Below, one piece after another: positions 9,595-62,079 of a stretch of DNA of 64,000 nt. The stretch lies in the NCBI GenBank assembly GCA_046350735.1, contig JAXLZU010000001.1:684462-748461 (forward strand). The letters run 5' to 3'. Below the pieces are notes generated by a model. It worked only from the letters and a program-made list of their open reading frames with translations. It was not told the origin of the DNA and did not search any database. The DNA is from Candidatus Saccharimonadota bacterium (GTDB lineage Bacteria > Patescibacteriota > Saccharimonadia > CAILAD01 > BJGX01). Made by a program: the position numbers and the translations under genes. Each line of letters opens with the position of its first letter. Within the stretch, counting starts at the first letter, position 1.

Positions 9595-9699
9595 GCTCAG
9601 AAAATCATCATTATTAATAATATAAAACTAATTTTACTTTATAGTTTTATTGTAACATATATTACTTATGCTTATTATTTGATACGCAAAAAAACAATC

Positions 9700-10701
9700 T
9701 TATGGTGTAACTGGAGAGGTATTTTTTAGCTGCTGAATATCTTTAGCTTGCTGCTGCACCATCTGAGTAAGCTTATCAATTTGATTCTGTTGGTCTTTGA
9801 GTTGCTGTGTATTCTCGTCTACCCGCTTCGTCAATGCCAGTAAGTCATCACTTAGGCTAGTAAGTTTAATACCTTGCTCAGAGAGTTGTTGGTTAGTTTT
9901 GTCTAAGTTACCGTTTTGTTCTTTTACTGCCTGGACAATATATGGCATTACACCCTCTTTATTTAGAGTTAGTGTTCCGTCTGGTAAAGTCGTTACCAAA
10001 TTTGGCAATACTTTGGCCACATCTTGAGCAATAAAACCAGCAACTTTATCACCTTCTGGGTTAACTTTCCAGTTGTAAGTAACTCCCTGAAGTTGATTAA
10101 TAACGTCTAGTCCATTAGAAATACTTAATATATTTGTTTTTAGTTTGGCATCTGAAACACAACTGAGCGAGCCTGCATTGGTGTCTACAGTACAAGTACC
10201 ACTCGTACCCGTAAAGCTAGCAGGTGTGTCGTCGCTCGTATCAGTAACATCAAGCTTGTTAGCGGGTGCGTTTGTACCAATACCAAATTTACCGCCAGAA
10301 ATATTCACCCAGCTATCATTACCCTTGTTATTTATTCGAGTATTTATGTTGCCAACACTATCAGAACCAATAAACGAATAGTCATATGGTCCGGCCCCAA
10401 CATCAGAAATAGTTGCACTATTACCAATAAATAATGAGTGATTTAACCCGCTAAGCGTGAGGTCTTGGCCTATTACCATACTGTAGTCTACATTAGTAAG
10501 GCTCGATGGTGTGACAGCTAGCGGATCGCTAGTGTCGACATTCAACAAATCTCGGTTGGAAGAATAGATGTTTGTCCATCGTGAATTTCCAACCAATCCT
10601 CCACTATCATGAATATCAAACCTAATATTATAGCCGGCATCACAACCAAATGGCCCCAAAGGAACATCATTATTACAGTAACCTCCATGCGTACCTACCA
10701 A
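9700..10701 (-). CDS. C-terminal part of a fibre protein carrying a Peptidase S74 / intramolecular chaperone auto-processing domain (CIMCD) and a C-terminal coiled coil. It is probably one gene with 10695..12206, disrupted by a frameshift.
   Basis: SDAKLKTNILSISNGLDVINQLQGVTYNWK matches the S74 CIMCD signature (S-D-x-x-L-K-x-N-I...L.GV.Y.W). The ORF track start is a TTG directly after the stop of the upstream ORF, in a frame offset by 1. Confidence 0.6.
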   Translation of the reverse strand: MVGTHGGYCNNDVPLGPFGCDAGYNIRFDIHDSGGLVGNSRWTNIYSSNRDLLNVDTSDPLAVTPSSLTNVDYSMVIGQDLTLSGLNHSLFIGNSATISDVGAGPYDYSFIGSDSVGNINTRINNKGNDSWVNISGGKFGIGTNAPANKLDVTDTSDDTPASFTGTSGTCTVDTNAGSLSCVSDAKLKTNILSISNGLDVINQLQGVTYNWKVNPEGDKVAGFIAQDVAKVLPNLVTTLPDGTLTLNKEGVMPYIVQAVKEQNGNLDKTNQQLSEQGIKLTSLSDDLLALTKRVDENTQQLKDQQNQIDKLTQMVQQQAKDIQQLKNTSPVTP

Positions 10702-12206
10702 TTCATTGCATTATTCACATCAGCTAGATGGATTCCACCATACAATCCACCTGAAGAATTTACAACAGATTCAACAATATTACCTGCACCGCCGTATATC
10801 CCATTAATTGAAACCGATCCCTGAAATCCTCCAGTAAAATGCGAAAGATTTTGAATAGTAGCAATACCTGCTATCGGACCATTTGCCATGATATTCGACC
10901 AACTACTATCAGTAATGTTGGTACTAAAGCCATTAATATTCGACCAGTCTACGTTGTCTAATCCTAATACAAAACCTGTTGCATTTGTATTGGTGGTATC
11001 TGAAGCCGTTACAGATACACCTGTCATAGCTGAACGAGTAGTATTGGTAATGTTTATATCACTACCAATAAATGCACTGTCTGAAACTCCGCTAAGGTTT
11101 ATGTTCGAACCGTTAGCAGTAACTCTAGATAGGTTTAACAAAGTTCCATTATTAGCCTGAATTATTGAAGTATCAACATTTGTTGCACTTCCAGCATTGA
11201 TTCTTATGAGACTATTTAGTCCAAAATTAATAGTAGAATTACCTTGTAGACCAACAATAGCATTACTACTATTAGTAATACTACTTCCTCCGTCTGCTCC
11301 ACCCAGTATATTTGAACTATCAGTAACCGTAAGGTTACCACCAAAACTACCAAATTGACCCATTAGGTTACTAGAGCCATTTACTGTAGCTCCAACAAAC
11401 TGGCCTACCATTCCGTATCCACCGGTAATATTGCTTCCAAGACTATACAATAGATTGTAGCCTGTACCATTTAGCGTTGAGTTGTGTGCCCAACCAATAT
11501 TGTAGCTAGAGTCAATAATAGTTGCCGATTCGGTTTGTAAAATATTAGCACTAGAATTAGTAAATGTTGAAGCACCTGGGGCAAAACCCCCTGTTGGAAT
11601 TACGAAATTACTATCAGATGTACCGCTAAAGCTTGATTGCCCAAAACCACCCACCGTGGCCAGTTTGTTTGGGATAATGTTTCCAAGTGCATCGATTTTT
11701 AATGAATTAGTACTAGCCGTAACTACTTGCAGATCTTGATTATCTAAAGTACCGAGCTGTGCTGTAGCTCCGTAGCTGTTACCATTTTGGCAAAAATATG
11801 TGCCAGCAACTACACATGGATCGGTCGGGCCCGATGGACCAGTTGGACCAGTAGATCCAGCTATGCCCGGCGTACCCTTAGAACCATTAGCTCCAGATGG
11901 TCCCGGTTGACTATTAACATTGAGTGGTAATGTTATAGAGTTACCACCAGAAATACTGAGCTCATTACCATTTAACGAAAGTACAGACATATTCTTAGGC
12001 TGATTGCCGCTAATAGTAGTTTCGTTACACAGCACATTGTTCAAACCTAACAAACGAATATACCACACATCAGTACAGAGACCACGCAGTATAATGAGTA
12101 TAAGTAAAAATACTACAGCAAGACCAACTAGTAGCCAAAACAACCACCAATGAGAATTGCTATTGTGCTGCTCGCCCTGAACAGAATTTTGTCCTGGTTG
12201 ATCCAT
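10695..12206 (-). CDS. N-terminal part of the fibre protein: cytoplasmic tail, TM helix, collagen-like G-x-x repeats (GPSGANGSKGTPGIAGSTGPTGPSGPTDP), and beta-helix-like N/S/T/G repeats.
   Basis: TM is HWWLFWLLVGLAVVFLLILIILRGL. It is homologous in architecture to the 803-aa protein at 24055..26466. It ends at a TAG one nucleotide out of frame with the 333-aa ORF. Confidence 0.55.
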   Translation of the reverse strand: MDQPGQNSVQGEQHNSNSHWWLFWLLVGLAVVFLLILIILRGLCTDVWYIRLLGLNNVLCNETTISGNQPKNMSVLSLNGNELSISGGNSITLPLNVNSQPGPSGANGSKGTPGIAGSTGPTGPSGPTDPCVVAGTYFCQNGNSYGATAQLGTLDNQDLQVVTASTNSLKIDALGNIIPNKLATVGGFGQSSFSGTSDSNFVIPTGGFAPGASTFTNSSANILQTESATIIDSSYNIGWAHNSTLNGTGYNLLYSLGSNITGGYGMVGQFVGATVNGSSNLMGQFGSFGGNLTVTDSSNILGGADGGSSITNSSNAIVGLQGNSTINFGLNSLIRINAGSATNVDTSIIQANNGTLLNLSRVTANGSNINLSGVSDSAFIGSDINITNTTRSAMTGVSVTASDTTNTNATGFVLGLDNVDWSNINGFSTNITDSSWSNIMANGPIAGIATIQNLSHFTGGFQGSVSINGIYGGAGNIVESVVNSSGGLYGGIHLADVNNAMNW

Positions 12207-12278
12207 ATATTACTCAAAAACTACTTATGCTTATATTGTAGCCCAGGAGAACCTACAAAGCTATAAGAATTTATTAGT

Positions 12279-12977
12279 TTAGTTAATAAAATCTTTTAGA
12301 TCTTGCCAAGAAGAGCTAGCGGCACTTTCGTTATAATTGGGCCGGCCTGGCTGAAAGTATGCATGACCAGCGCTATATTCTTTGGCCAAGTAGGACACAT
12401 TAGCGCTTTTTAGCTCTTGCTTGGTCTTATCTCTATCTTCTTCGGGAATTGACTCATCTTGCGTGCCATAAAAAGATAAGACCTTTAAAGTTGGGTCATT
12501 TTTGCGCGCATTTACCAAGACTTCTATTGGTGTTTGTGCTTGATAATAGTCTGGTGTATGTGCTCCTGCCCCATAGAACGATACAATTTTAGTTACCGCC
12601 TGTTCTGTGCCGGTTAAGTAAGCTAGGCAGCCCGCAAAACAAAAACCTATTACACAAATCTGTTTAATACTCGGATTTTCCTGACGAATAGCGTCTACGG
12701 CTTTATTAAATGCTGGCACAAAATCTTCACCACGCATTTTCTGCATTAAACTAACAGCTTCATCAATCTCTTCTGGTGAGAATTTGTTTGTAGCGCCAGT
12801 AAGTGTATAGAAGTAGTCAAACATATACACCGGCTTTTGTAGTACTTTGGCAAATTCTTGCATAGTTGCCATTGCATAATCGGTAATACCAAATATATCT
12901 GGCATTAGAATTATTGCCATACTGTTGCCAGTTAATTTGTTATTGATATCTGCCTGGTAGATAAACGGGCTGTTCAT
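12279..12977 (-). CDS. Dienelactone hydrolase family protein.
   Basis: VIGFCFAGCLAYL (DLH nucleophile Cys motif) and C-terminal GHAYF. 232 aa. Confidence 0.6.
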   Translation of the reverse strand: MNSPFIYQADINNKLTGNSMAIILMPDIFGITDYAMATMQEFAKVLQKPVYMFDYFYTLTGATNKFSPEEIDEAVSLMQKMRGEDFVPAFNKAVDAIRQENPSIKQICVIGFCFAGCLAYLTGTEQAVTKIVSFYGAGAHTPDYYQAQTPIEVLVNARKNDPTLKVLSFYGTQDESIPEEDRDKTKQELKSANVSYLAKEYSAGHAYFQPGRPNYNESAASSSWQDLKDFIN

Positions 12978-13124
12978 AGTTCTATTTTACCACGTAGCGA
13001 AATTGACATTACTAGAACACAAAAGATATACTGCAAGTGTCTAACGGGTGTAATACCCAGAGGAGGAAACTTTCGCAACTGTGTTTGGCTCGTGGTGCCC
13101 AAAAGCACCAGAGGGAGAAACGCC

Positions 13125-13436: not shown

Positions 13437-13442
13437 ATTATA

Positions 13443-13466: not shown

Positions 13467-13501
13467 ATGTCTTAGATAAATCTGTGCTATCTGGCTAATG
13501 G

Positions 13502-13669: not shown

Positions 13670-13746
13670 GGGCGCGTAGCTCAGATGGTTAGAGCGCGTC
13701 ACTGATAATGACGAGGTCCCTGGTTCAATTCCAGGCGTGCCCACCA
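13670..13746 (+). tRNA. tRNA-Ile (anticodon GAT), CCA encoded.
   Basis: Cloverleaf read by hand: acceptor GGGCGCG/CGTGCCC, D-arm GCTC-AGATGGTTA-GAGC, anticodon arm CGTCA-CTGATAA-TGACG, T-arm CCTGG-TTCAATT-CCAGG, then ACCA. Confidence 0.9.
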
Positions 13747-13764
13747 GAAAAATATTTACAATAC

Positions 13765-13841
13765 GGGGCATTAGCTCAGCTGGCTAGAGCACCTGCTTTG
13801 CAAGCAGGGGGTCCGGGGTTCGAATCCCCGATGCTCCACCA
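13765..13841 (+). tRNA. tRNA-Ala (anticodon TGC), with the G3:U70 identity pair and CCA encoded.
   Basis: GGGGCAT...GCTC-AGCTGGCTA-GAGC...CCTGC-TTTGCAA-GCAGG...CGGGG-TTCGAAT-CCCCG-ATGCTCC-A-CCA. Confidence 0.9.
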
Positions 13842-15207: not shown

Positions 15208-15567
15208 TTATCGCTGTTTACATTCTCCAATTATCTTATCTAGGGCTAATTTTGTTTCAATAGATTGTGGATCTGCATCAAATTTTTTGGCCTGGTCGTA
15301 TGTATATTTCTGTTTTAATAGCCTATATATACAACTACAATCAGAAGATGAGCTACCCTGAGCTTGACAGCTGGTTAGGAAATTATTTTCGAACTCCTTT
15401 GTGTAGCCCGTGTCTTTATATATATCTTCTAACTTAATATCAATACCTATCGCCAAAACAAAGAAACCCACGATACAGAAAAGAATAATTGCCCACTTAA
15501 CGAGTTGGTGATTCTTCTTTAGTGTTTTAGTGCTTGGCTTATCTGCTATATCATCTGTTGTTGTCAT
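15208..15567 (-). CDS. Hypothetical membrane protein (one TM, Cys-containing C-terminal domain).
   Basis: 119-aa ORF with TM WAIILFCIVGFFVLAIGI. Confidence 0.4.
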   Translation of the reverse strand: MTTTDDIADKPSTKTLKKNHQLVKWAIILFCIVGFFVLAIGIDIKLEDIYKDTGYTKEFENNFLTSCQAQGSSSSDCSCIYRLLKQKYTYDQAKKFDADPQSIETKLALDKIIGECKQR

Positions 15568-15644
15568 ACGTCTTTACTGTAACATATCTGTCGAGTTGGA
15601 TTACAAAAAAATTTCTGATTGAAGTATGTTAGAATATTACTTAT

Positions 15645-15900
15645 GCTTGGTTCGATATTTCTTGGTCTACTTATGATAGTTATTGGTGTTGTAATTGTGG
15701 TGTTTCGACGCAATATTTATAACTTTACCGGCTACATTGACTTCGTAGAAGGTTGGTTCCCCGGGGGAACAAATACGTTTATTCTTTTTTTTGGTCTAGC
15801 CCTTATCTTAATTGGCATTTTCTTTGTTACAGGAATAGGCAACTCTATTACTGCACCAATTACCGACCAACTAAAAGCTGTATTTGGTGGCGTAAAATAA
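15645..15900 (+). CDS. Small hypothetical membrane protein (two TMs). Start is the ATG at 15645, or the TTG at 15619 as in the ORF track.
   Basis: MLGSIFLGLLMIVIGVVIVVF... is hydrophobic. A terminator hairpin follows. Confidence 0.35.
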
Positions 15901-16127: not shown

Positions 16128-17672
<1,545 letters not shown>

Positions 17673-17714
17673 AAAAAGAAAAGTGATCAAGACCACAAAG
17701 ACAACTATTTCTTT

Positions 17715-24054: not shown

Positions 24055-26466
24055 TTAATCAATTATAAACCAATTAAACTCTACTGTCGTCGCTTGTGTT
24101 TTTTCTAGATGAATACTAAAGCCATTAGGCCCTGAATTAGACACCCAATAATTTCCGTCTATTTGACTCAGCGGTGTTAATTGTACGTTGGGTAACCCAC
24201 TGTGTCCACCTGTGACGCCAACTTGCAGAACCGTCGCACCAGCGGCCAAAGAAGTTCTGCCGCGATTTGCACTACTGCCGGCTATTACATCGTTAAAGCT
24301 AGCAGTACCGTTAAATGTGGTATTCTTGGAAAATGTTACATCGGCTTGATGATTTACTAATGCCGCAAACGTTACATTACCCTGAAACTCAGTATCGGTC
24401 GTAACAATACCACCAGAGAACACCGCATTTGCTACTTGATTGCCATTCTTTAGTGCGTCAATTTGTGTTTGTTGCTGCTGCACAGCATTTACAAGGTAAG
24501 GCAAAATACCATCTTTATTAAGGCTTAAATTGCCATTATTGTCCGTGCTAACTAATTCTGGCAAAATTTTAGCTACCTCTTGAGCGATAAAGCCATCTTG
24601 TTGTATACCGGCAGGATCGCTCTTCCAGTTAAAGGTAACACCTCGCAATTGCGAGATAACATCGAGGCCGTTATTGACAGAGAGAATATTGGTTTTTAGT
24701 TTTTCATCAGAGCTACAACTCCAGCCGGTCCCAGTAACTACAGTACATTGCGTACCAGCCGAACCATTAAACTGAGCAACATTCGTCGTAGAAGCATCGG
24801 TTACATTCAGTCGAAAGGCACCTGGAGAGTTTGTACCTATGCCGGCACTACCATTGGCAGTAATAACGCTCTGCGCAGTACCTGTGGAGTTTTGCCATTG
24901 AGTAAGATTACCAGTTTGGCCCGCAGTGCCCTGTACTACCAGGGGTTTATCTGTGGTAACGCGAGAAGTAACTTGAATTGTAGCATTTGTATCAGCCGTG
25001 GATGGGTTATTTATAATCAGCTTATTACCTCCGGTTAGGGGCTCTAGAAAACCACATAAAACGTTCGAAGTTTCACTACCAGAGCAAATACCTATCTTCA
25101 CCTTGCCTTCAAAAAAGTTCTGACTATATGTACCTTCTGAGCTAATGTTGGCATTTACTACTGTACCCAGATTTGCAAGTGGGTTTAAGAATTGATTAAT
25201 TGGGCTTGCTGGGCTAGTGTCGAGCACCTGGATGCCAAAATATTTACTAATTGTCCCACCCTGAATAACATTAGGAAATCCTAAAAACGGTAGAAGCTGT
25301 GGATTAAAGGCATTATAGCCAACGTATGAATTAATATTACCAGCATTAATAGCTGGCATTGCTAGATTACCATTGGCACGATTAATTGTTCCTGCCCCCA
25401 AGTTAGAAACAAGCGATATATTACCTACTCCAACATCAACCGTACCTGTACCATTATGAGCATATGATGACAGAGAACCGCCATTGAGATCATAGTTAAA
25501 TGCGCCATTTGTCTGCAGGGCAGAATACGAGCCAGCAAAAAGATTGTCGTTAGTTGCAGGGTCTATGGTTGGCTCTATAAGTAACTCGTTAGCAAGCCCG
25601 GCATATATACCTTTGTTGATAGAATTCTGATACACAATCTGTTGAGTTGTAAGAGTTCTGCTAATATCTCTGCCACCAAACAATCCTCCGGCGTTTAGAA
25701 TAGTACCTTGCGGTGTAGCATTTGGTCCTACCAATAACTGGCCAGAGAAACTACCAGTACCCTCAACATCTAGATTGTAGTTAGGGGCACTACTACCGAT
25801 ACCAACAAAGTTATTTGCCGAGTCGATACTAAGTATCGGTGAGCCCGATGCATCTTGCACCTCAAATGCACCTATTGAATTACTCGTATTACGAAAAATC
25901 TGATTCGTACCGGTAAATGCCTGAAAGTTGTGGTCGAGATAAGCAATATCACTCGGTAGAGAGCTAGAGGATAATGAGCCAGTAATAAAGTTCGCATTTA
26001 AGCTACCTTGTAATGTGGTAGCACTCAAAGTACCACCAACGTTAGCATTCCCGCCAATATTAAGATCGCCAGCTCCATTTATTGTACCGAGTACAGTTAG
26101 ACTACCTGTGTTTAATTGATTGCCATTTACTGTTAGCTGACCATTGAGCGGAGTAGTAGTAACACCAGATACGTTTAAGTTGGTCGGGTTATAATTATCG
26201 GCCGCAGTAATTGTCTTACCAATACCACCACGCGAACGCACCGTAATGTATACTGCAAATGCCAGAGCTGCGAGTAATAGCAAAATAAGCACAATCCACA
26301 TTGCTCGAAACAGTATGCCTCTGCGATGAGCAGACAGCACACTTTGATTGTTTTCGAACGCCTCAGAGCTAACAGCATTTTCTTTGGCAACTTCTGCCGA
26401 AAATGTTGTAGCCGCGCTCGCCGAAACCTGTGCGTTTGGTATTTGTTGTGGGCTAGATTGTTCCAC
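24055..26466 (-). CDS. Membrane-anchored fibre protein (803 aa): cytoplasmic tail, TM, tail-fibre-like repeats, an internal Peptidase S74 intramolecular chaperone domain, and a roughly 130-aa C-terminal extension.
   Basis: TM is MWIVLILLLLAALAFAVYI. CIMCD motif CSSDEKLKTNILSVNNGLDVISQLRGVTFNWK. The N-terminus is homologous to the other fibre proteins in this window. Confidence 0.65.
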   Translation of the reverse strand: MEQSSPQQIPNAQVSASAATTFSAEVAKENAVSSEAFENNQSVLSAHRRGILFRAMWIVLILLLLAALAFAVYITVRSRGGIGKTITAADNYNPTNLNVSGVTTTPLNGQLTVNGNQLNTGSLTVLGTINGAGDLNIGGNANVGGTLSATTLQGSLNANFITGSLSSSSLPSDIAYLDHNFQAFTGTNQIFRNTSNSIGAFEVQDASGSPILSIDSANNFVGIGSSAPNYNLDVEGTGSFSGQLLVGPNATPQGTILNAGGLFGGRDISRTLTTQQIVYQNSINKGIYAGLANELLIEPTIDPATNDNLFAGSYSALQTNGAFNYDLNGGSLSSYAHNGTGTVDVGVGNISLVSNLGAGTINRANGNLAMPAINAGNINSYVGYNAFNPQLLPFLGFPNVIQGGTISKYFGIQVLDTSPASPINQFLNPLANLGTVVNANISSEGTYSQNFFEGKVKIGICSGSETSNVLCGFLEPLTGGNKLIINNPSTADTNATIQVTSRVTTDKPLVVQGTAGQTGNLTQWQNSTGTAQSVITANGSAGIGTNSPGAFRLNVTDASTTNVAQFNGSAGTQCTVVTGTGWSCSSDEKLKTNILSVNNGLDVISQLRGVTFNWKSDPAGIQQDGFIAQEVAKILPELVSTDNNGNLSLNKDGILPYLVNAVQQQQTQIDALKNGNQVANAVFSGGIVTTDTEFQGNVTFAALVNHQADVTFSKNTTFNGTASFNDVIAGSSANRGRTSLAAGATVLQVGVTGGHSGLPNVQLTPLSQIDGNYWVSNSGPNGFSIHLEKTQATTVEFNWFIID

Positions 26467-26584: not shown

Positions 26585-26848
26585 TTAGATATTTGCAAAT
26601 ACTACTACATAATTGTTGTGTACTTTTACAACACCTCTATTAATATCGTAGCTGCGACGACCAAATGGGGTATGTATTGTTACCTTGCCCTGTTGTAATA
26701 AACCAATAAAATTAGCATGGCCATAGAGTACGTCAAAAGGGCCAGTAGCTGTGTTGGCAGATAGGCTAGCAGCCGGACCTTCGTAAAAGATTTCGAATGG
26801 TGAAAAAATCTTTATACTTAGTTGGTTTGTCTTAGTATTTGCCTGCAT
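26585..26848 (-). CDS. F1-ATPase epsilon-like subunit, beta-sandwich only (copy 2).
   Basis: 87 aa. FSPFEIFYEGPA...GPFDVLYGHANF. Paralog of 3956..4210. Confidence 0.5.
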   Translation of the reverse strand: MQANTKTNQLSIKIFSPFEIFYEGPAASLSANTATGPFDVLYGHANFIGLLQQGKVTIHTPFGRRSYDINRGVVKVHNNYVVVFANI

Positions 26849-26852
26849 TGTA

Positions 26853-28184: not shown

Positions 28185-29032
28185 ATAAGCCCCTCTCTAT
28201 CTCTTACAAATACTCGTGTAGCGGCATCTCGGTTTTGGCGCTGCTGCCTACGATAACTTCTATATACATCAGATTTTAGCTCGCCCGCCGCGGTAGAAGC
28301 AGAGCTCATTGCACGAAATCTACTAGCCAGTTGAGCCAGACGCGATTCTAAGATTAATTCAGTTAGTGCGGTGGCACGCATCATACTTTCTAGATAGGTT
28401 ACTACCTCCTCAAGAGAAGGCTCAAATATATAGTCTGATGCAAAAATAAGTGTCGTATTGGTTTTATTAGCCTCGGCCTCACTAAGCCTTGCTATACCAC
28501 CCACCAATTCAAACACCTGAACTTGTTGGGTCGTTAAATTAATAAACTGCTCAAAATATACCACGCATGTCCGATAATCTTGAGTGGCTGAAATAATTGG
28601 CACAACGTTAACGGGCCTAGTGATATCTGGTAATGGATAAACTCTGGTAGGTATTACACCTTTATTGCGCAATAATTTAGCGCCTTTTTTACCAATTACA
28701 TAAAAGTCTGTGGTTTGTTCATTTACCGAACCAAGTACTTCGTCCACCAGTTCTTCGTCAATACTGCCAGACAGTGTATCTTCTGAGCTAATAAGAATAA
28801 CAGCTGTACGATTAAGACTGCGAGTAGGTAGCAAGCTAGCCACAGGCGAGTTGGCATCTACACGCAACTGTACATACATACTCCAGAGCTCGTGAAAAAA
28901 GTCGCGACTAGCAACTACACGGTCACGTATCTGACGAATCTGAATACTGGTAATACTCTCAAAAACCTTTGTAACCTCTTCGATGGTTTCTAGGTCGGTA
29001 TACTGACGGTACATTTCTTGGCTTTTACTCAT
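28181..29032 (-). CDS. F1-ATPase gamma-like subunit (copy 2).
   Basis: 283 aa between alpha-like and beta-like. Paralog of 5520..6356 with the same N-terminal pattern (TKVFESITSIQIRQIRDRV versus THIFENVASIRIRQIKEQV). Confidence 0.6.
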   Translation of the reverse strand: MSKSQEMYRQYTDLETIEEVTKVFESITSIQIRQIRDRVVASRDFFHELWSMYVQLRVDANSPVASLLPTRSLNRTAVILISSEDTLSGSIDEELVDEVLGSVNEQTTDFYVIGKKGAKLLRNKGVIPTRVYPLPDITRPVNVVPIISATQDYRTCVVYFEQFINLTTQQVQVFELVGGIARLSEAEANKTNTTLIFASDYIFEPSLEEVVTYLESMMRATALTELILESRLAQLASRFRAMSSASTAAGELKSDVYRSYRRQQRQNRDAATRVFVRDREGLI

Positions 29033-34334: not shown

Positions 34335-34415
34335 CTTTCCCCTTTAAATATACAATTGCTTATGCTTTATTGTAGTACACACTACAATAGCTATGCAAGA
34401 CTTAAGAAGAAGTAA

Positions 34416-37403: not shown

Positions 37404-37446
37404 GCCCTATATTATACCAGTTATGTTTATACGAGACTATATCGAC

Positions 37447-38949: not shown

Positions 38950-39005
38950 AACTACCTGGTAATTTTAGTATTGTCTATTATTATACCTCTTATGCTTAGA
39001 AAAAG

Positions 39006-41789
39006 TCAGACTATTTTACTCTTACTTATAGTGTTGCTCGTTAACAACCCGTTTTCTATGCTGTTCATATGCTTTGCTATCTCCTTCTGACTAGGGTTAG
39101 CTCCACAATCTATCCAAATTCTCATACTTACCCGCTTCTTATTCGCGCCAGCTAGTTCTTCGCTGGTGAATTCTTGGATAAATTGTATGCGAGATACATG
39201 TTTTTGCGATTTTGTAATCAATGCAATATCTTGCCAAAGAATTTCATTAGATAATTCTAACGTAAGATCTCGACTAACAAGTTGGTAGGGGAGAGATGGT
39301 ACCGATTTTTGGGCAATTTCGGTAAAGATAGATTGATCGGGCAAAGTTAGTTCTGCAAAACTTACTTCTTCATTAATTGAGAATTTTTTTAGACAAACAG
39401 GTTTTATTTGTCCATAAACTCCTTTTACCTCGGGTATACGCTGGCTTTGCAAAATAGCAGTTCTACCAGCCAAGAAATTGTCTTCTTCACTCCGGCTATA
39501 TGTAAAGGCCAGTTGATAACGACTTTCACACATATCGAGTACACTCTTTATTCTCTCAAGCCCGTTTTGACCAACTGCAGTTATTGCCAATCGCCAACCT
39601 TCTTCTGCTAGTGTCTTCGAGCGAGGAGATTTATTATAGATTCGTGCAAGCTCAAAGAATCCATACTCTTTTTGATAAAATGTATTGTTTCGCGCTGCTG
39701 TCTGCAAATGACTACTTAAGAGTGAGTTGCGCAAATAGGCTTGTTCTTTACTCATAGGGTTTTCTATTGCCAGCACACTAGTTGGATCAATAGTAGTGTC
39801 TAGCAGATCTTGCTGACTAACAAAAGAGTATGTAGTTACTTCAAATAGTCCAGCTGCTACCAAATCTTCGCGCATACCCATTAGCCCGGGTAACATCTGA
39901 TGATCAGACGTTTCCATAGGAGGTAATTCGGGCAATTCGCTCGGCATATTTTCATAACCCACTATCTTAGCTGCCTCTTCTATCAGGTCGACTTCTTTGG
40001 TAATATCAGTACGCCACCAGGGTGCAACAACTGCAATTATATGATTAAAGCTACTAACATAACGCCGTGCTCCTTTAAAACTAGGGTTAGTAGTATAACT
40101 TTCGAGTGATGTATAGCGCACATCGGCCGTTTTGCGCTGTTTATATCTACCAGTTTTAGCATCAAACTCATATTCGCTAGCCTCTATAACTTGGTTTTTA
40201 CCCAAATACATACCAACATGCCCTATATCGCCGCGGCTTTTGGCGTCTAATTTTTCCCAGTGCCCAGAGTAAAATAGCAGATCTCCAGGCTTGAGATTAT
40301 CTTTGTCGACAGGCTTTCCAGAGTTAAATTGTTGCTGTGCAGTGTGCCCAATAGTTATACCAATTTTTGAATATATTCTCTCTACTAAATACGAGCAGTC
40401 AAAAGCGTCTTCGCCGTTTTTCTTAAAGCTAGCACCATATACATAGGGTTTACCAAGATGTTTTTTAGCCTCGCTCGAGAGAGAAAAGTGTTCTGCACTA
40501 AACCCACGCGCACGCAACCCTTCAATTATTTCTTTTTCATTCAGCTTTGTACCAAGCACCATTTCTGCCCGGCGCTGACGCAAACCAACATACGATATCC
40601 ATGGCCATGCATATAATTGATCATTTACTTCATCAAGCAACTCGGCATGACAAATTTCTTTCAATAATTGTGCAGCTCGCTCAAAAGCAAAACAGGGAAG
40701 GGGGAGTGGGAGACCTTTCTCGAATCGAGTACTTGCCTCAGAACGTAAGCCGTGACGCAGTGCACTTCTTCGAATAGTAGTTTTATTAAAGTTAGCAACT
40801 TCTAAGACAATCTCTTGTGTTTGGTTACTTACTTCGCTACTGGCTCCACCCATTACACCTGCCAGTCCAATGGCACCCGAATTATCTGCAATCACTAAGT
40901 CCTCTTTGCTTAGCTTTCTTTCTACGCCATCCAAAGTAGAGAGGGCTTCACCGGCTTTGGCAAATCGCACCTGCAAAGCACCACTAAGTTTTTTTCTATC
41001 ATAAGCATGACTTGGTTGGCCAGTTTCTAACATCACATAGTTAGTAATATCTACAACGGGGTGAATAGCACGCATCCCTGAAGCTTCTAAGTTTTCCACA
41101 ATCCAAGCCGGAGTCTCGACATTGTTATTAATACGAAATGCTGCGCTGACAAATCGCTCACACTCCCCAGTTTCCTTGACTTTCACCACTTCTCTGTTTT
41201 TATATTCAATTTTCTGTCGTTCTGGTTCTACAATCTGGTTTTTAGAAGAATTAGCAGAAATTTCGCGCGCCAAACCCAAAACCGACAATAAGTCCCACCG
41301 GTTTGCAGGCGTCTTAACATCCACAATATCGGTCATATTCTCTATGTCGCACAATGATATTCCAAGGGGGAGATCAGGGTCGAGCTCTAACAAGCCGGTA
41401 TGGTCACTACCCATGCCTAGCTCTTTTGCCGATGCCAGCATTCCGGCCGACATTTCGCCACGAATTTCTCGCTCACCAATTACAAAATCTTCCGGTAAGA
41501 CACTACCGGGCTGAGCATATGCTACCACCAAACCTTTTCGAACATTGGGCGCGCCGCAGACAACTCGACGTGTAGTGTTGCCAAACTCTATATCTACCAA
41601 GTGTAATTTATCAGCATTTGGATGGTCTATTACATTTACCACTTTGGCAATAATTACTTTTTTATCTAACTTGGGTGGCGTAATAACTTCTTCTATTTCT
41701 ACCTCGGTACGCTCTAATGCTGCCACAATCTCATCAGTAGAAAGAGATTTTTTTAGATAACGATTTAGCCATTGTATACGTACTTTCAT
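39006..41789 (-). CDS. pheT: Phenylalanine--tRNA ligase beta subunit, with a roughly 150-aa NlpC/P60-like insertion inside the B5 domain.
   Basis: N-terminal tRNA-binding domain, B3/4, B5 flanks (LRQRRAEMVLG...IIEGLRARGF / IIAVVAPWWRTDITKEVDLIEEAAKIVGYENMP), catalytic-like core and C-terminal anticodon-binding domain. 927 aa. Confidence 0.9.
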   Translation of the reverse strand: MKVRIQWLNRYLKKSLSTDEIVAALERTEVEIEEVITPPKLDKKVIIAKVVNVIDHPNADKLHLVDIEFGNTTRRVVCGAPNVRKGLVVAYAQPGSVLPEDFVIGEREIRGEMSAGMLASAKELGMGSDHTGLLELDPDLPLGISLCDIENMTDIVDVKTPANRWDLLSVLGLAREISANSSKNQIVEPERQKIEYKNREVVKVKETGECERFVSAAFRINNNVETPAWIVENLEASGMRAIHPVVDITNYVMLETGQPSHAYDRKKLSGALQVRFAKAGEALSTLDGVERKLSKEDLVIADNSGAIGLAGVMGGASSEVSNQTQEIVLEVANFNKTTIRRSALRHGLRSEASTRFEKGLPLPLPCFAFERAAQLLKEICHAELLDEVNDQLYAWPWISYVGLRQRRAEMVLGTKLNEKEIIEGLRARGFSAEHFSLSSEAKKHLGKPYVYGASFKKNGEDAFDCSYLVERIYSKIGITIGHTAQQQFNSGKPVDKDNLKPGDLLFYSGHWEKLDAKSRGDIGHVGMYLGKNQVIEASEYEFDAKTGRYKQRKTADVRYTSLESYTTNPSFKGARRYVSSFNHIIAVVAPWWRTDITKEVDLIEEAAKIVGYENMPSELPELPPMETSDHQMLPGLMGMREDLVAAGLFEVTTYSFVSQQDLLDTTIDPTSVLAIENPMSKEQAYLRNSLLSSHLQTAARNNTFYQKEYGFFELARIYNKSPRSKTLAEEGWRLAITAVGQNGLERIKSVLDMCESRYQLAFTYSRSEEDNFLAGRTAILQSQRIPEVKGVYGQIKPVCLKKFSINEEVSFAELTLPDQSIFTEIAQKSVPSLPYQLVSRDLTLELSNEILWQDIALITKSQKHVSRIQFIQEFTSEELAGANKKRVSMRIWIDCGANPSQKEIAKHMNSIENGLLTSNTISKSKIV

Positions 41790-44829: not shown

Positions 44830-45180
44830 CGTATCTGCCCTTAATAGAATTAACTAAATGGCACACGCTGGCCCGAAGGCCAACTCTCAGCAGAACCGAA
44901 AGTAGCCGATGTAAGCTGTCAAGGCGCATATATGCATCAGTTACTGAAATACACGGTTGACGACTTCCCAACCATCCGTATGGCAGACCGGCCAGGATTC
45001 GCGCTCCAAAGTATTTAGAGAGCAAGTCCTAGCCGACTCCTTCGGGTGAAGATAGACAAGGTACAAAAATTTACAGAACAGCAGAAATAACTATCTTAGT
45101 TTGCCCCTCGAACAGTAGGGAAAAACTGGCTATAAAAAGCAAGGGGGCTGCCTTTTATGAGCCAGACTTCCCCTACCGTA
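44830..45180 (-). ncRNA. Candidate structured non-coding RNA of unresolved identity. It shows RNase P-like sequence islands but I could not build a convincing model. It could instead be a purD leader or riboswitch.
   Basis: A 350-nt GC-enriched region with no ORF, between trpS and purD. Many short complementary segments. A perfect sigma70 promoter (45338..45310) points into it. Minus-strand GGGGAAGUCUGGCUCAUAAAAGGCAG resembles the RNase P GGAAAGUCCGGGCUCCAUAGGGCAG region. Confidence 0.25.
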
Positions 45181-45309
45181 TTAGGTTGAAATTGGTTTAA
45201 ATAGAGATACTTTTATAGAGATCAAGTATCGTCATAGAATGCGTAAAGAATTTGTGGCATGGTTTTTGTGTTGGTTTTTATTTTTATTTGAAAGAACAAT
45301 GTTAAGACT

Positions 45310-45338
45310 ATTGTAGCAAACGCTTATGCTAATGTCAA
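45310..45338 (-). promoter_or_regulatory. Sigma70 consensus promoter on the minus strand (TTGACA, 17 nt, TACAAT) driving the ncRNA candidate / purD.
   Basis: Minus strand reads caTTGACAttagcataagcgtttgcTACAATag. The spacer contains the recurrent AGCATAAG motif. Confidence 0.5.
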
Positions 45339-47515: not shown

Positions 47516-47567
47516 ACACTCATTATACAGACCAAATGTACGAACACAATACGAATATAGAGAAGTT

Positions 47568-47918
47568 TTATGCTATATCAGAAAAAATGCGTTTTAGAGC
47601 TTGGTAGGCAGCACTTACCAAGAATATAAAGGTAAATAGCAATAATCCTATCTGTAAATAGGTTACAAATAAGAATAGAACTCCGGTAGGAGTTTCACCA
47701 CCATTCCAAAATACACTATTCGTAAGAAATTTAATTATTTGCGTAAGGACAAAGGTAATAAGGGCAAACAATAAATACTTTCTTGCCTTGGTAACAGCAA
47801 GCTTATTTAGTCTCTCTCGGCTACGGATAGAAGCTTTTTGCTTTAATGTGTAGCCAGAGCTTTGCGCAACAATCTTGTTGCCTCCAGTAATTGATACTTT
47901 TCTCTGTTTCATAGACAT
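47568..47918 (-). CDS. Hypothetical membrane protein.
   Basis: 116-aa ORF with two TM segments. Confidence 0.35.
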   Translation of the reverse strand: MSMKQRKVSITGGNKIVAQSSGYTLKQKASIRSRERLNKLAVTKARKYLLFALITFVLTQIIKFLTNSVFWNGGETPTGVLFLFVTYLQIGLLLFTFIFLVSAAYQALKRIFSDIA

Positions 47919-48047
47919 AGTATATCATAATATAGTGTATTTTTCAATACTTTTAGCATAAGTTTTTTTGTGCTAGTTTATGGATAATTTTTTTATTTTT
48001 GCTTTTGTGACGGACTAATTTTACGAGCAAGTTGTATTTTGAACATA

Positions 48048-55006: not shown

Positions 55007-55053
55007 GTCTCTATTATATCTGATTTACTATCAAGTAGGCTATAATAAGAACT

Positions 55054-55503: not shown

Positions 55504-55663
55504 AAAATATATTATTTTTTGTGTTCATTTGCGTTTCTTATCTGTTGAAACTAAATAATATTACATATACTTAATGCTATAGCATTAAGTATATGTGTAA
55601 AATACATGGATTTTCTTCTGTCGGCTTGAATTATCAGTGAATATTGCTTATGCTAGAAGTATT

Positions 55664-56674
55664 ATGAATTCCCTCTCTTCTATTGCAGCCCAGTTATTAA
55701 CAGACCCAAAAGGACTTTTGGCAGCTGATGAGTCGACCAAGAGTGCCAATAAGCGCTTAGCAGCATTAAATATAGAGCAGACCGAAGAAATGCGACGTAT
55801 ATATCGCCAAATGCTCTTTACTACACCCAATGTCGCACAATACATTAGCGGTGTAATACTCTATGACGAAACAATTCGTCAAACCACTGACGATGGCCGG
55901 CCCTTTGCTGATTATTTGCAAGAACAAGGCATAATTCCAGGTATAAAAGTTGATGGTGGTCTGGTAGACCTGACTAACTTCCCTGGTGAAACGGTTACAG
56001 AAGGTCTCGATGGTTTGGCAGAACGGCTGGCAGAGTATTACAAAATGGGTGCTAGGTTTACCAAATGGCGTGCAGCTTTTGGTGTAGATGAGTCGGCCAA
56101 GCTACCGAGCTCTACCGCCATACATGCCAACTTACATGGTATGGCACGGTACGCCGCCCTTGCCCAAGCGACTGGTATGGTACCAATTGTCGAACCCGAA
56201 GTTCTCTATGATGGCAGCCACAGCCAGAAGGCCTGCCAAGACACCTTAAGTAATGTCTTACGTATACTATTCGATCTCTTAACTGCTTACCGTGTAGATC
56301 TGACTGGCGTTATTCTTAAATCGAGTATGGTTCTAGCCGGCAAAGAAAATACCCAGCAAGCCGACCCGCACGCTGTCGCCAACGCTACCCTGCAAGTGTT
56401 TAATGAGCGTGTACCCAAAGAAGTGGCTGGTATTGTTTTTCTATCTGGTGGACAAAGCCCAGATATGGCAACTGCCAATCTTAACGCTATCGGCAGTGCC
56501 GGCAAGCAGCCATGGCCTATTACCTTCTCTTTCTCGCGCGCCGTGCAAGACCCTGTAATGGCCAAGTGGGATGGCAAAAGCCAAAATGTTATTGAAGCTC
56601 AAGCAATCTTTGCCCAACTTTTAGCCAATAACTCACTCGCCCGCGACGGTAAATTTGTGGCAGATAAAAATTAA
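55664..56674 (+). CDS. fba: Fructose-bisphosphate aldolase, class I.
   Basis: GLLAADESTKSANKRL, ILYDETIRQ and a Schiff-base-type fold. The start is moved to the ATG at 55664; the ORF track begins at a GTG at 55637. Confidence 0.85.
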   Translation: MNSLSSIAAQLLTDPKGLLAADESTKSANKRLAALNIEQTEEMRRIYRQMLFTTPNVAQYISGVILYDETIRQTTDDGRPFADYLQEQGIIPGIKVDGGLVDLTNFPGETVTEGLDGLAERLAEYYKMGARFTKWRAAFGVDESAKLPSSTAIHANLHGMARYAALAQATGMVPIVEPEVLYDGSHSQKACQDTLSNVLRILFDLLTAYRVDLTGVILKSSMVLAGKENTQQADPHAVANATLQVFNERVPKEVAGIVFLSGGQSPDMATANLNAIGSAGKQPWPITFSFSRAVQDPVMAKWDGKSQNVIEAQAIFAQLLANNSLARDGKFVADKN

Positions 56675-56708: not shown

Positions 56709-56738
56709 GTTGACAAGGCTTATGCTTAACCAGTATTA
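56709..56738 (+). promoter_or_regulatory. Sigma70-like promoter (TTGACA, 18 nt, TATTAT) with the recurrent GCTTATGCTT motif in its spacer.
   Basis: ttgaca aggcttatgcttaaccag tattat in the AT-rich region between fba and the surface protein gene. Confidence 0.4.
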
Positions 56739-57060
56739 TGGATTTAGTGCTGCACACTAAAATTACTCAAAACAAAAACAAAGCTCTTTTTTACAGATTG
56801 GCGGAGGCATAAAGCCCCGCCAATTTGTTTTAACAAAATAACCAACATAGACAAATTAATGTATTCGAGCCAAATTGCGGCTCGATTTTTTTTTGGCTAA
56901 ACCAAAATTCTTATACTTATATATATACTAACTCCAAAAAGTTGGTTACAATAAAAATAGATTTGATTTAAGAATCATAAGGTAAACAAAAATCAAAAAA
57001 ACAAAAAGCCAGGTAAAAGATATTTTTAATCTGCTATTTACCTACTCAATAGCAGCTCTT

Positions 57061-60309: not shown

Positions 60310-60310
60310 C

Positions 60311-60517
60311 ATGAGCAAACTAATATCAAAGATGAGTAGTAGCACCATGATAATACTGGGAACAGTTTTGGTACTTGTACTACCCCTATGTCTAATTGGC
60401 TATTTTACTACCAACAATCCAGCCCTACTGGTTATTTCTATGCTTGGCGTAGTTACCTTTCCGATTGGTATGGTTATGCTCGCTGTAGGTGTTATGACTT
60501 TCAAAAAGAATAAATAA
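60311..60517 (+). CDS. Small membrane protein (68 aa, two TMs).
   Basis: The ATG sits 1 nt after the upstream stop. MSKLISKM...ILGTVLVLVLPLCLIGYF...MLGVVTFPIGMVMLAVGV. Confidence 0.4.
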   Translation: MSKLISKMSSSTMIILGTVLVLVLPLCLIGYFTTNNPALLVISMLGVVTFPIGMVMLAVGVMTFKKNK

Positions 60518-60540
60518 AAAAGACTTACCTGAGTAAGTCT
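60516..60540. terminator. Bidirectional terminator hairpin (agacttac-ctga-gtaagtct) with a flanking A-run/T-run.
   Basis: 8-bp perfect stem between convergent genes. Confidence 0.5.
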
Positions 60541-60551
60541 ATACTGATTGT

Positions 60552-61010: not shown

Positions 61011-61098
61011 GCTGGCAATATACTACCAGATATATTAACTCTGTACAAGATAAATATAAAAACCCATACAATTGCTGTATGGGTATGTAATTATATGT

Positions 61099-61497: not shown

Positions 61498-61570
61498 AAC
61501 GGAATAATTATACTATTATTACATGTCTTTAGCAACAAAAAAGACCTTTGCATATCACGAAGGTCGCTTT

Positions 61571-61969
61571 TGGTGGAGCTGGCGGGTTCTGCCCCCGCGT
61601 CCATACGGTTTGAAAAAATATCGTCTTCAAGCATAGTCGATTCTAATGGGATTTTACAAGCCCCAAGAGTGTAAAAAACCGACAAGAGCGCTCAAGTTGC
61701 TTGCTCTCTTTATTTTTCTTAGATCTCGCCCAGAGAGGTGGTAAGACCGCATCCAGATAATCGACGCTTGTTACCCTATCTGGTGTCTAGGTAGTAAGCG
61801 GCATAGCGTATTAGGCGTATGCTGGCGCAAGGCTAGGAGCTGCAAAAGCAGCCTTTACCTTGCTAATAAGTGTATTGGCACTTAAAGTGTTTTGGAACGG
61901 CTAACGTGCATTCCAGCCCGGCTTGCGAATATTTTTCAAAGTTCCATATGTCAAAGCTAATACAGCCCC
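61571..61969 (-). ncRNA. ssrA: tmRNA (transfer-messenger RNA).
   Basis: Minus-strand 5' GGGGCUGUAUUAGCUUUGAC... compares with E. coli GGGGCUGAUUCUGGAUUCGAC. The 3' ...GGACGCGGGGGCAGAACCCGCCAGCUCCACCA compares with E. coli GGACGCGGGUUCAACUCCCGCCAGCUCCACCA. There is a 7-bp acceptor with the G3:U pair, a T-arm GCGGG/CCCGC, and an internal tag-like frame ...AAFAAPSLAPAYA-stop preceded by UAAGU-GCC. A canonical promoter lies directly upstream, and smpB is in the window. Confidence 0.75.
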
Positions 61970-61979
61970 ATAAGAAGAG

Positions 61980-62008
61980 ATTTTACTTGTTATAAGGTAA
62001 AATGTCAA
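61980..62008 (-). promoter_or_regulatory. Sigma70 promoter for tmRNA (TTGACA, 17 nt, TAAAAT) ending about 10 nt before the tmRNA 5' end.
   Basis: Minus strand reads TTGACAttttaccttataacaagTAAAATctcttcttatGGGGCUG. Confidence 0.5.
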
Positions 62009-62079
62009 GAATGCTTATGCTTGTGCTGTAGATAATTTTTTGGTATAAATATATTTCTCCGATAGACAAGGAGTGTACC

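Follow-up and report, generated by a model that had tools for sequence, protein, structure and literature searches.

Why does one short DNA word recur next to promoters, and never inside genes, along a 64,000-nt stretch of a small Saccharimonadia (Patescibacteria/CPR) genome (the window, meaning the whole stretch analyzed here), and what reads it? A sequence-only reading had listed at least nine copies and proposed an operator or a lineage-specific promoter element. Here, we report the copy number, conservation, and promoter context of the word, which, judged by sequence comparison, is very probably a cis-regulatory DNA word specific to Saccharimonadia. No published description of it was found in the literature.

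Copies of the word in the window

The 8-base word AGCATAAG / CTTATGCT had 10 copies in the window, all 10 intergenic, where the sequence-only reading had placed almost all of its sites. The nine copies listed there were recovered, each as CTTATGCT on the plus strand (9665, 12224, 15640, 34359, 38989, 45323, 55647, 56719, and 62014), with one start corrected from 56718, which is the preceding G, to 56719; a tenth, on the minus strand (47955-47962), had been missed. Intergenic DNA made up 5.6 kb (8.8%) of the window, and the genes (58 kb) contained no copy. Against the 10 intergenic copies observed, 0.24 to 0.39 were expected (Markov models, order 1 to 3; Poisson p, 1e-11 to 1e-13 for intergenic DNA only; Bonferroni p over all 8-mers, 5e-7 to 4e-9), and the word ranked first for over-representation among intergenic 7-, 8-, and 9-mers. 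The claim of a frequency far above expectation holds for intergenic DNA; over the whole window, the excess was modest (10 copies versus 4.07 expected, with 2 of 100 shuffles reaching 10).

One-mismatch variants showed no notable enrichment in the window (11 intergenic, 60 coding), so the word is sharply defined. Seven window copies extend to CTTATGCTT, and, with weaker flanks included, the consensus of about 15 bp is W-AGCATAAG-Y-n-n-W-n-T; CATAAGTA was also confined to intergenic DNA (5 intergenic, 0 coding). Two longer identities noted previously are real: the 15-mer ATATTACTTATGCTT is shared by two sites, starting at 9659 and 15634 and not at 9656 and 15631, and GCTTATGCT...AGTATTATG is found at about 55646 and 56718. 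A repetitive extragenic palindrome or MITE (unit of at least 20 nt, internal palindrome, shared flanks) was rejected, as the copies have only 8 bases and two weak flank positions in common and share no hairpin. No second half-site was found around the word at any fixed offset, as dyad or direct repeat, and doublets were only occasional (L006, L068).

The 10 sites (s1 to s10) and their targets are as follows.

s1, 9665..9672, minus strand: AGCATAAG 10 nt upstream of TGtTACAAT (-10 at 9654-9649); target, ATG of 8770-9594, 70 nt downstream of the word (signal-peptide protein, first gene of an ATP-synthase-like operon).
s2, 12224..12231, minus strand: TACAAT (12240-12235), 3 nt, then AGCATAAG; target, ATG of 10695-12206, 17 nt downstream (membrane protein with collagen-like repeat).
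s3, 15640..15647, plus strand: CTTATGCT, with TATGCT (15642-15647) placed as the -10 of TTGAAG(15619-15624)-17-TATGCT; targets, a 75-aa membrane ORF on the plus strand (ATG 15673, 25 nt downstream) and the divergent gene 15208-15567, about 72 nt away.
s4, 34359..34366, minus strand: TACAAT (34374-34369), 2 nt, AGCATAAG, 6 nt, TATATT; target, ATG of 31983-34334, 24 nt downstream (PKD-domain protein); kept in the close relative L061.
s5, 38989..38996, minus strand: AGCATAAG 3 nt upstream of TATAAT (38985-38980) in the promoter CTGACT-18-TATAAT (39009..38980); target, the L,D-transpeptidase gene 37447-38949, downstream.
s6, 45323..45330, minus strand: AGCATAAG in the spacer of TTGACA-17-TGcTACAAT (45338..45310); target, a conserved, unannotated, structured non-coding RNA of about 480 nt (about 45303-44830).
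s7, 47955..47962, minus strand: CTTATGCT 7 nt upstream of the -35 of TTGAAA-17-TATACT (47947..47919); target, 47568-47918 (small membrane protein); site kept in L061.
s8, 55647..55654, plus strand: CTTATGCT, with TATGCT (55649-55654) as the -10 of TTGAAT(55626-55631)-17-TATGCT; target, ATG 55664, 9 nt after TATGCT (class-I fructose-bisphosphate aldolase).
s9, 56719..56726, plus strand: CTTATGCT in the spacer of TTGACA-18-TATTAT (56710..56739), with the alternative reading TTGAAA-18-TATGCT; target, a candidate small RNA of about 150 nt, downstream, ending at a hairpin and T-run (56865-56885).
s10, 62014..62021, minus strand: AGCATAAG 5 nt upstream of the -35 of the tmRNA promoter TTGACA-17-TAAAAT (62008..61980); target, tmRNA (61969-61571). 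On the plus strand, the word overlaps the -35 (TTGTGC, 62021-62026) of TTGTGC-17-TATAAA, serving ORF 62080-62370.

Every copy lay within about -50 to +10 of a promoter-like sigma-70-type site, a proximity that is partly unavoidable in intergenic regions of only 50 to 130 nt. Position and orientation of the word relative to the promoter varied between sites, as did its distance to the start codon (9 to about 70 nt). The two textbook promoters singled out previously were found, the one at 45338..45310 (which has a TG extension) at the coordinates given and the one at s9 shifted by one base from 56709..56738; the TACAAT boxes said to precede the word at 12224 and 34359 are also present. The s7 transcript is probably a leaderless mRNA beginning at the second ATG of its gene.

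Distribution and conservation in Saccharimonadia

In the window and 19 related Saccharimonadia loci (297 kb of coding DNA), about 48 intergenic copies were counted versus 3.6 expected, and 1 true coding copy versus 11.6 expected, which is the opposite of equal frequency inside and between genes. The word is counter-selected inside genes. These counts reassign to non-coding DNA four aldolase-promoter copies that the ORF mask had scored as coding; in-frame stop codons separate the word from the aldolase ATG in L002 and L008, so the word at this promoter is non-coding. The ratio of intergenic to coding density was >100 for the 8-mer and 3 to 4 for TATAAT, TACAAT, TTGACA, and TATGCT alone; TATGCT lacking the preceding CT had a bias of 3.5, ordinary for -10 hexamers. 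Control loci from outside the Saccharimonadia (L013 to L060, about 0.8 Mb) had almost no copies.

At orthologous promoters of relatives with 41 to 70% protein identity, the word was invariant and its flanks were randomised (column identity, 100% versus about 45 to 68%), a phylogenetic footprint seen at both the non-coding RNA and the aldolase promoters. At the former, the word lay in the spacer of TTGACA-17-TGnTAnnnT in 15 of 16 genomes, the exception (L070) having AGCATAAc in its place, and it moved by 1 nt between lineages with the spacer constant at 17 nt. At the aldolase promoter, the word was invariant in all 14 genomes and supplied the -10 box (TATGCT) of TTGCAA/TTGAAT-17-TATGCT-6/9-ATG; from this geometry, we infer that the promoter is leaderless or near-leaderless. 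At the ldt promoter, L066 has the arrangement of the window, with the word 3 nt upstream of the -10; the word is also present in this intergenic region in L064 and L067, with one mismatch in L061 and L062. Close relatives show site turnover, with a single mismatch each in L061, L062, and L070, and both this turnover and the 1-nt shift within a constant spacer are behaviours typical of factor binding sites. Both orientations occur at about the same spacer position, as AGCATAAG-N7/8-(-10) at s6 and the L193 pilin promoter and as CTTATGCT-N7/8-(-10) at s9 and L007. Genic avoidance, conservation at orthologous promoters, and near-empty controls together support the pair of functions first proposed, operator or lineage-specific promoter element.

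What reads the word

We favor an operator, to which we give an even chance: the word would be bound by a putative lineage-specific global DNA-binding regulator acting at core promoters. One sequence-specific protein would read it as a single asymmetric site, much as Spo0A 0A boxes and DnaA boxes are recognized. At s1, s2, s4, s5, s6, s8, and s9, where the word occupies the spacer, the -10, or the start site, the protein would, once bound, compete against RNA polymerase and act as a repressor; at s7 and s10, where the word overlaps the -35 or lies a little upstream of it, the protein could activate or insulate. One orientation contains a usable -10 hexamer, TATGCT, and at the predicted leaderless aldolase promoter this hexamer is the -10, so that factor and polymerase would compete there for the same bases. 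The targets in the window (three RNA genes, namely the structured RNA, tmRNA, and candidate sRNA; the aldolase; and many envelope or surface genes) suggest a broad programme and not a single pathway, and the density of one site per 6 to 10 kb points to a genome-wide total of the order of 100 sites. About 30 window proteins were scanned; none had a DNA-binding domain, and no candidate regulator was found among them. On the sequence evidence, the word very probably marks a regulator landing site in a poorly understood bacterial group.

Several observations sit awkwardly with an operator. Bacterial operators usually have a dyad or direct-repeat partner, which is missing here, and few are as sharp as this 8-mer, which is all-or-none and has hardly any degenerate copies; both count against this reading. 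Nine of the 10 copies lie on one chromosomal strand whatever the direction of the gene served, which a simple operator model does not predict.

It is possible, though we think it unlikely, that the RNA polymerase holoenzyme reads the word directly as a lineage-specific promoter element. Read as CTTATGCT, the word would present an extended -10 (CT+TATGCT) to a sigma factor, either the housekeeping one or an alternative; copies facing the other way would be spacer elements tuning strong promoters, or else promoters that are divergent or antisense. The complete aldolase promoter in 14 of 14 genomes fits this account, as do the equal geometry of other leaderless promoters in the window, which have TATAAT, and the avoidance of the word in genes, as expected of a potent promoter signal. 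Among the five window copies that face a gene in the CTTATGCT sense, three have TTGAAx 17 to 18 nt upstream, versus no TTG-initial hexamer at the other five (nearest, TTAAGA at 45323). The word also lies within 5 nt of three of the four window promoters scoring 11 of 12 and of three of the five intergenic TTGACA hexamers. Placement as a TAnnnT -10, 16 to 18 nt after a -35-like hexamer, was found at the aldolase gene in 14 of 14 genomes and is plausible at 15640 and 56719, but not at 9665, 12224, 34359, 38989, or 62014. Half of the copies are directed at the 3' end of the gene upstream and have no -35 partner, the opposite-strand "-35" at the non-coding RNA promoter is not conserved, and no fixed -35 partner or conserved upstream partner column was seen for the word. 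Sigma tolerates change at -10 positions 3 to 5, and other promoters here vary accordingly (TACAAT, TATACT, TAAGAT); the G and C of the word (hexamer positions 4 and 5) and the preceding CT are nonetheless invariant, against the degeneracy expected of a -10, and TATGCT lacking CT is no more biased to intergenic DNA than any -10 hexamer.

We regard as improbable a polar protein-bound barrier or genome-maintenance signal that does not control transcription initiation. A barrier would be a roadblock or insulator, mTERF- or Tus-like, against read-through between packed co-directional genes; a maintenance signal would be strand-oriented, like Chi or KOPS, or a DNA uptake sequence of competent bacteria. 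This reading accommodates the strand bias: 9 of 10 copies read AGCATAAG on the G-rich, gene-rich strand of a window with uniformly negative GC skew (no origin or terminus), and independent site families across relatives have a strand ratio of about 12:3. Five copies lie between co-directional genes with no intrinsic terminator predicted there, and avoidance in genes fits a roadblock. The exact, sharply defined word resembles uptake, Chi, and KOPS words, and natural competence is known in Saccharibacteria (PMC10633639). Words of these three kinds are, however, mostly genic, and an uptake sequence is not expected to hold a constant base position in a promoter spacer across relatives with 41 to 70% protein identity. 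In Southlakia, which belongs to a different family and so bears only weakly and indirectly on this case, the 8-mer was present in only one transformation cassette of Table S4 (PMC10633639). The single coding copy in 297 kb speaks against a DNA uptake sequence, which would be dense in coding regions as elsewhere, and the exclusively intergenic placement in the window against a Chi or KOPS signal, which would be distributed independently of gene boundaries. The roadblock version may still apply and overlaps the operator model.

Action on RNA, where the word might, for example, be processed or bound by a protein in 5' leaders or intercistronic RNA, is very improbable. In its favor, leaders or read-through RNA would carry AGCAUAAG from the copies at 12224, 34359, 38989, and 9665, and strand bias is natural for RNA elements; against it, the copies at 55647 and 56719 would read CUUAUGCU in sense RNA, the best-conserved two copies (one in a promoter spacer, the other in a -10 box) precede the start site, and the distance to the start codon is not fixed. 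Chance, or a base-composition effect in AT-rich intergenic DNA, for which the whole-window excess of only about 2.5-fold might speak, is effectively refuted by the top rank and Markov-corrected intergenic p values and by replication of the pattern in independent relatives, with invariance at orthologous sites.

Comparison with known systems

The yeast mitochondrial nonanucleotide promoter ATATAAGTA is likewise an exact intergenic word of about 9 nt, and three window copies read GCATAAGTA, identical to it at 7 of 9 positions. Nothing here points to the single-subunit RNA polymerase that such a promoter requires; ordinary -35/-10 promoters are found at every site, and at 55647 and 56719 the orientation of the word does not agree with that of the gene served. 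Neisseria DUS, Pasteurellaceae USS, Chi, and KOPS are clade-specific, sharp, over-represented words of 8 to 12 bases, with strand skew in Chi and KOPS, but they are abundant inside genes and not position-conserved in promoters, whereas about 48 of about 49 copies of the present word are intergenic.

TATGCT fits the sigma-70 -10 pattern TAnnnT, and the aldolase copy, 17 nt after TTGCAA/TTGAAT and 6 or 9 nt before ATG, resembles TATAAT leaderless promoters elsewhere in the window. Unlike a -10, all eight bases of the word are invariant, including those that sigma leaves free; most copies lie elsewhere than at the -10, and half face away from the gene. The DnaA box TTATCCACA is an asymmetric 8- to 9-bp site that is read by a monomer and can act as a promoter operator. 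The two are alike in being highly exact and in promoter regions, with the start TTAT common to (C)TTATGCT; the word lacks the CACA half that DnaA needs and is dispersed at about one per 6 kb, not origin-clustered, in a window whose GC skew shows no origin.

The Spo0A 0A box (TGTCGAA) is unrelated in sequence, and the Saccharimonadia word is more exact, has a chromosomal strand bias, and has only a putative cognate protein. NarL-type response regulators likewise use single heptamer sites, and Spo0A and NarL sites repress or activate by position within a large regulon. The word resembles them as a short, asymmetric, single site, used in either orientation, at positions from upstream of the -35 to the start site.

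Distribution of the word between and inside genes

The word is an exact 8-base intergenic motif, CTTATGCT in one orientation and AGCATAAG in the other (TTGACAtaAGCATAAGcgtagtgcTATACT is a form of it and ACCATAAG a possible variant). The nine positions of CTTATGCT listed by a sequence-only reading all carry it, with one start corrected (56718 is the G preceding the word, which begins at 56719), and a tenth copy, absent from that list, lies at 47955 on the minus strand. Extension to CTTATGCTT was found at 7 copies. The reported AGTATTATG pair is real, as is the common 15-mer, whose true start is 3 nt later than had been given. Nine of the ten copies share a strand, the G-rich, gene-rich one.

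Copies of the word in the window (site, position, placement, what is served)
s1, 9665: in spacer, 10 nt before TGtTACAAT; signal-peptide protein 8770-9594
s2, 12224: 3 nt after TACAAT, approximately at the start site; collagen-like membrane protein
s3, 15640: probably itself the -10; 75-aa membrane ORF (plus strand)
s4, 34359: 2 nt after TACAAT, approximately at the start site; PKD-domain protein
s5, 38989: in spacer, 3 nt before the -10; L,D-transpeptidase
s6, 45323: in spacer of an 11/12-match promoter, 45338..45310; unannotated structured RNA
s7, 47955: 7 nt upstream of the -35; small membrane protein
s8, 55647: itself the predicted -10; class-I aldolase
s9, 56719: in spacer of an 11/12-match promoter, 56710..56739; candidate sRNA, ~150 nt
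s10, 62014: 5 nt upstream of the -35, overlapping the -35 of a divergent promoter; tmRNA and ORF 62080-62370

With genes and RNAs mapped first, all ten copies were intergenic (5.6 kb, 8.8% of the window) and none fell in genes (58 kb). The claim of a frequency far above expectation holds for intergenic DNA; for the window as a whole the excess falls to ~2.5-fold (10 versus 4.07), and at least 10 copies were reached in 2 of 100 shuffles. Against an expectation of 0.24-0.39 intergenic copies (Markov order 1-3, trained on intergenic DNA alone), the Poisson p is 1e-11 to 1e-13, and Bonferroni correction for all 8-mers leaves 5e-7 to 4e-9. Among all intergenic 7-, 8- and 9-mers, the word and its sub-words ranked top; a compositional artefact was ruled out by these models and this ranking, and we regard chance as a negligible explanation of the pattern. 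One-mismatch variants (11 intergenic, 60 coding) were not notably enriched, so the word is sharply defined. Its intergenic/coding bias as an 8-mer exceeds 100-fold; TATGCT alone, a usable -10 hexamer within CTTATGCT, has a bias of 3.5-fold, the same modest level as TATAAT, TACAAT and TTGACA.

Relatives among the Saccharimonadia (Candidatus Saccharibacteria, Patescibacteria) were found via ArgRS, PheT, TrpRS and GyrA. Across the window and 19 Saccharimonadia loci pooled (335 kb), 44 copies were scored as intergenic and 5 as "coding", but 4 of these 5 were aldolase-promoter copies mis-masked through an upstream alternative start codon; the corrected split is thus ~48 intergenic (3.6 expected) versus 1 coding (11.6 expected; P(<=1) ~1e-4). 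The word is enriched between genes and avoided inside them, the opposite of the equal frequency in genes named beforehand as pointing to compositional bias. Control loci from outside the Saccharimonadia (~0.8 Mb, same scan) were almost devoid of AGCATAAG.

Promoter anatomy and conservation

Because intergenic regions are very short, promoter proximity alone is weak evidence, and our conclusion draws on orthologous invariance together with the intergenic/coding contrast. In relatives with ArgRS 56-83% identical, AGCATAAG occurs at equivalent places beside orthologous genes. Downstream of trpS, 15 of 16 genomes (TrpRS 60-91% identical, PheT down to 41%) carry TTGACA-(1-2 nt)-AGCATAAG-(4-5 nt)-TGn-TAnnnT, and the 16th (L070) has AGCATAAc. 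The invariant columns of this promoter alignment are exactly the -35, word, TG and TA..T positions; the spacer is constant at 17 nt, and the position of the word within it varies by 1 nt.

Upstream of the class-I aldolase gene, all 14 genomes have TTGCAA or TTGAAT, 17 nt, [CT]TATGCT, 6 or 9 nt and ATG, the geometry of other leaderless promoters in the window (TATAAT, 6-7 nt, ATG); judged from this layout, the -10 is supplied by the word. Word columns are 100% conserved, against a maximum base frequency of ~45% in neighbouring spacer columns. A hidden coding sequence (tblastn ran through the word as "AYA") was rejected: in-frame TAG or TGA stops lie between the word and the aldolase ATG in two relatives (L002 and L008), so the word is non-coding there.

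In the pheT/L,D-transpeptidase intergenic region of the window and of L066, the word precedes TATAAT by 3 nt. It also occurs in this region in two relatives with PheT 41-45% identical (L064, L067), and with one mismatch in two close relatives (L061, L062), an apparent turnover that is typical of binding sites.

Spacings to the -10 or start codon (0, 3, 6, 7-8 and 10 nt) exclude a fixed distance; some copies are downstream of the -10 and others upstream of the -35. At much the same place in the spacer the word can stand in either orientation, as AGCATAAG-N7/8-(-10) at s6 and at a pilin promoter (L193), and as CTTATGCT-N7/8-(-10) at s9 and in L007. Flanks are weak (W at -1, Y at +1, T or W at +4, T at +6), with T at +4 in 10/10 window copies. 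No conserved upstream column was found that could act as the special -35 of an alternative sigma factor, and the copies have no consistent partner that would make a palindromic operator (GCWTAWGC) or second half-site. The hairpin after smpB (55563-55596) carries the word in each of its arms, with one base added (CTTAATGCT-AT-AGCATTAAG), an equivalent hairpin in L068 (765-782) contains an exact copy, and the aldolase promoter of L006 (9360-9376) has a 17-bp palindrome, AGCATAAG-g-CTTATGCT; these arrangements hint at occasional paired sites.

Genes and RNAs of the window

Protein-coding genes served by the word in the window are mostly those of envelope or surface proteins, plus the aldolase; the window promoters of gyrB, argS, smpB, trpS, rRNA and tRNA lack it. 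The word lies within 5 nt of 3 of the 5 intergenic TTGACA hexamers in the window, and all three drive RNA genes.

Stable RNA genes and operons in the window
13670-13841, plus strand: tRNA-Ile and tRNA-Ala
16131-17676, minus strand: 16S rRNA
44830-45303, minus strand: unannotated structured non-coding RNA, ~480 nt, terminator hairpin 44798-44774
~56746-56895, plus strand: candidate small RNA, TTGACA-18-TATTAT, two hairpins with T-runs (one at 56865-56885)
61571-61969, minus strand: tmRNA
3956-9594 and 26585-31291, minus strand: paralogous ATP-synthase-like operons (epsilon, beta, gamma, alpha and so on)

The ~480-nt RNA lies directly downstream of a TTGACA-AGCATAAG-TGcTACAAT promoter. An alignment of 8 Saccharimonadia sequences shows conserved helices, with compensatory changes at 26 base pairs, and the 3' end, GGCCCGTAACCA, is conserved as well. 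Rfam gave no match for it even at E<=1, and RNase P RNA was not supported as its identity. The gene that follows is purD in the window and L061 and guaA in L070, and neither in most relatives. The candidate small RNA region contains no ORF, is conserved in a close relative (L001) and also had no match in Rfam.

Further window genes are gyrB/gyrA, pheST, trpS, argS, smpB, the class-I aldolase gene and a TraG/VirD4-like gene. The 16S rRNA gene is solitary, with tRNA-Ile and tRNA-Ala ~2.3 kb off on the opposite strand; since the 64-kb window contains no 23S rRNA, the rRNA genes are unlinked. The first gene of each ATP-synthase-like operon (8770-9594 and 30446-31291) encodes one of two paralogous proteins of ~275-280 aa with a signal peptide and C-terminal anchor; upstream lie an exact word (9665) in the first and a one-mismatch AcCATAAG (31301) in the second. 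Peptidase_S74 domain proteins (an intramolecular chaperone of phage tail-spike or endosialidase type) are encoded by cellular genes at 9700-10701 and 24055-26466, and also in L192 and L193; one adjoins a collagen-like repeat protein gene (10695-12206), and they are conserved beside gyrB in relatives.

Leaderless or near-leaderless promoters appear common (-10, 6-9 nt, ATG, with no space for a Shine-Dalgarno sequence); other window genes have clear ribosome-binding sites (AAGGAG or AAAGGGG).

Leaderless or near-leaderless promoters
37404-37446
47516-47567
47919-47947
55007-55053
55626-55666

Small ORFs overlooked by a simple minus-strand reading
15673-15900, plus strand: 75-aa membrane protein with its own terminator
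60310-60551: "intergenic" stretch, possible small membrane protein
62080-62370, plus strand: 96-aa acidic protein with an AAGGAG ribosome-binding site

What may read the word

Exactness and invariance even where RNA polymerase imposes no constraint, variable position and orientation, turnover and counter-selection in genes jointly point to a sequence-specific DNA-binding protein, separate from the polymerase, that acts at core promoters; to this putative reader we give even chances. At the aldolase promoter, where the word holds a usable -10, binding of such a protein would compete with initiation. A Pfam search of ~30 window proteins identified no DNA-binding protein as regulator, and none is encoded by the genes adjoining extra copies in relatives, namely a histidine kinase (L007), a ComM-like protein (L006) and an acyltransferase (L002), all labelled by sequence reading, and the pilin (L193; precomputed Pfam).

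The main rival, which we hold to be possible and rather doubtful, is that the holoenzyme reads the word directly, treating it as a spacer element or a special kind of extended -10; the aldolase promoter and TTGAAx at 17-18 nt in 3 of the 5 sense-oriented copies support it, but non-contact positions of the word are invariant and many copies are directed into the 3' end of the gene upstream. A role as polar roadblock, insulator or genome-maintenance signal, alone in naturally explaining the 9/10 strand bias, is improbable; unlike the word, uptake, Chi and KOPS words are neither kept out of genes nor conserved in position in promoter spacers. A methylation or restriction site was considered, and would leave the promoter-position conservation unexplained; action at the RNA level is highly unlikely. 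Phage promoters were rejected, as a TTGACANNAGCATAAG scan of viral contigs gave 120 matches at chance density, mostly coding; the two perfect promoters (L081, L126) come from T4-like phages, whose early promoters are of the ordinary sigma-70 kind.

Taken as one claim, we think it unlikely that the word marks a Saccharimonadia-specific promoter class in which a dedicated master regulator, or RNA polymerase using a third promoter element, would switch stable-RNA genes and glycolysis in concert with surface, pilus and secretion genes of the epibiotic lifestyle, the single-strand orientation reflecting a polar roadblock or insulator role in place of terminators in a very compact genome.

Southlakia is naturally competent, its genetics paper gives no uptake sequence, and only one cassette there contains the word, within coding DNA (PMC10633639). 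The upstream arm of Southlakia SEML1_0377 (Table S4, PMC10633639) has ACCATAAGcttTATAAT, in the layout of AGCATAAGaggTATAAT at window position 38989 with one base changed, a single anecdotal case in which a cultivated Saccharibacterium may have its own dialect of the word.

The interest of the word lies in regulation in the Patescibacteria (CPR) being essentially unexplored: they form a large share of bacterial diversity, with tiny genomes and an epibiont lifestyle, and to our knowledge almost nothing is known of their gene control. With an information content suited to ~100 sites per genome, and placed in promoters of stable RNAs, aldolase, type IV pilin (L193), L,D-transpeptidase and many surface proteins, the word offers a concrete handle, as bait for the regulator and for computational definition of a regulon across thousands of MAGs. 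Some Saccharibacteria are now genetically tractable, and in these it could be used to design regulated or insulated expression cassettes. The most conserved word-bearing promoter also brought the unannotated structured RNA to light. Accessible full-text literature on Saccharibacteria/Patescibacteria promoters, motifs and regulators does not describe the word, which to that extent is new; in kind it would be familiar, as a cis-regulatory DNA word for which the single asymmetric boxes read by Spo0A, NarL or DnaA are the nearest parallels.
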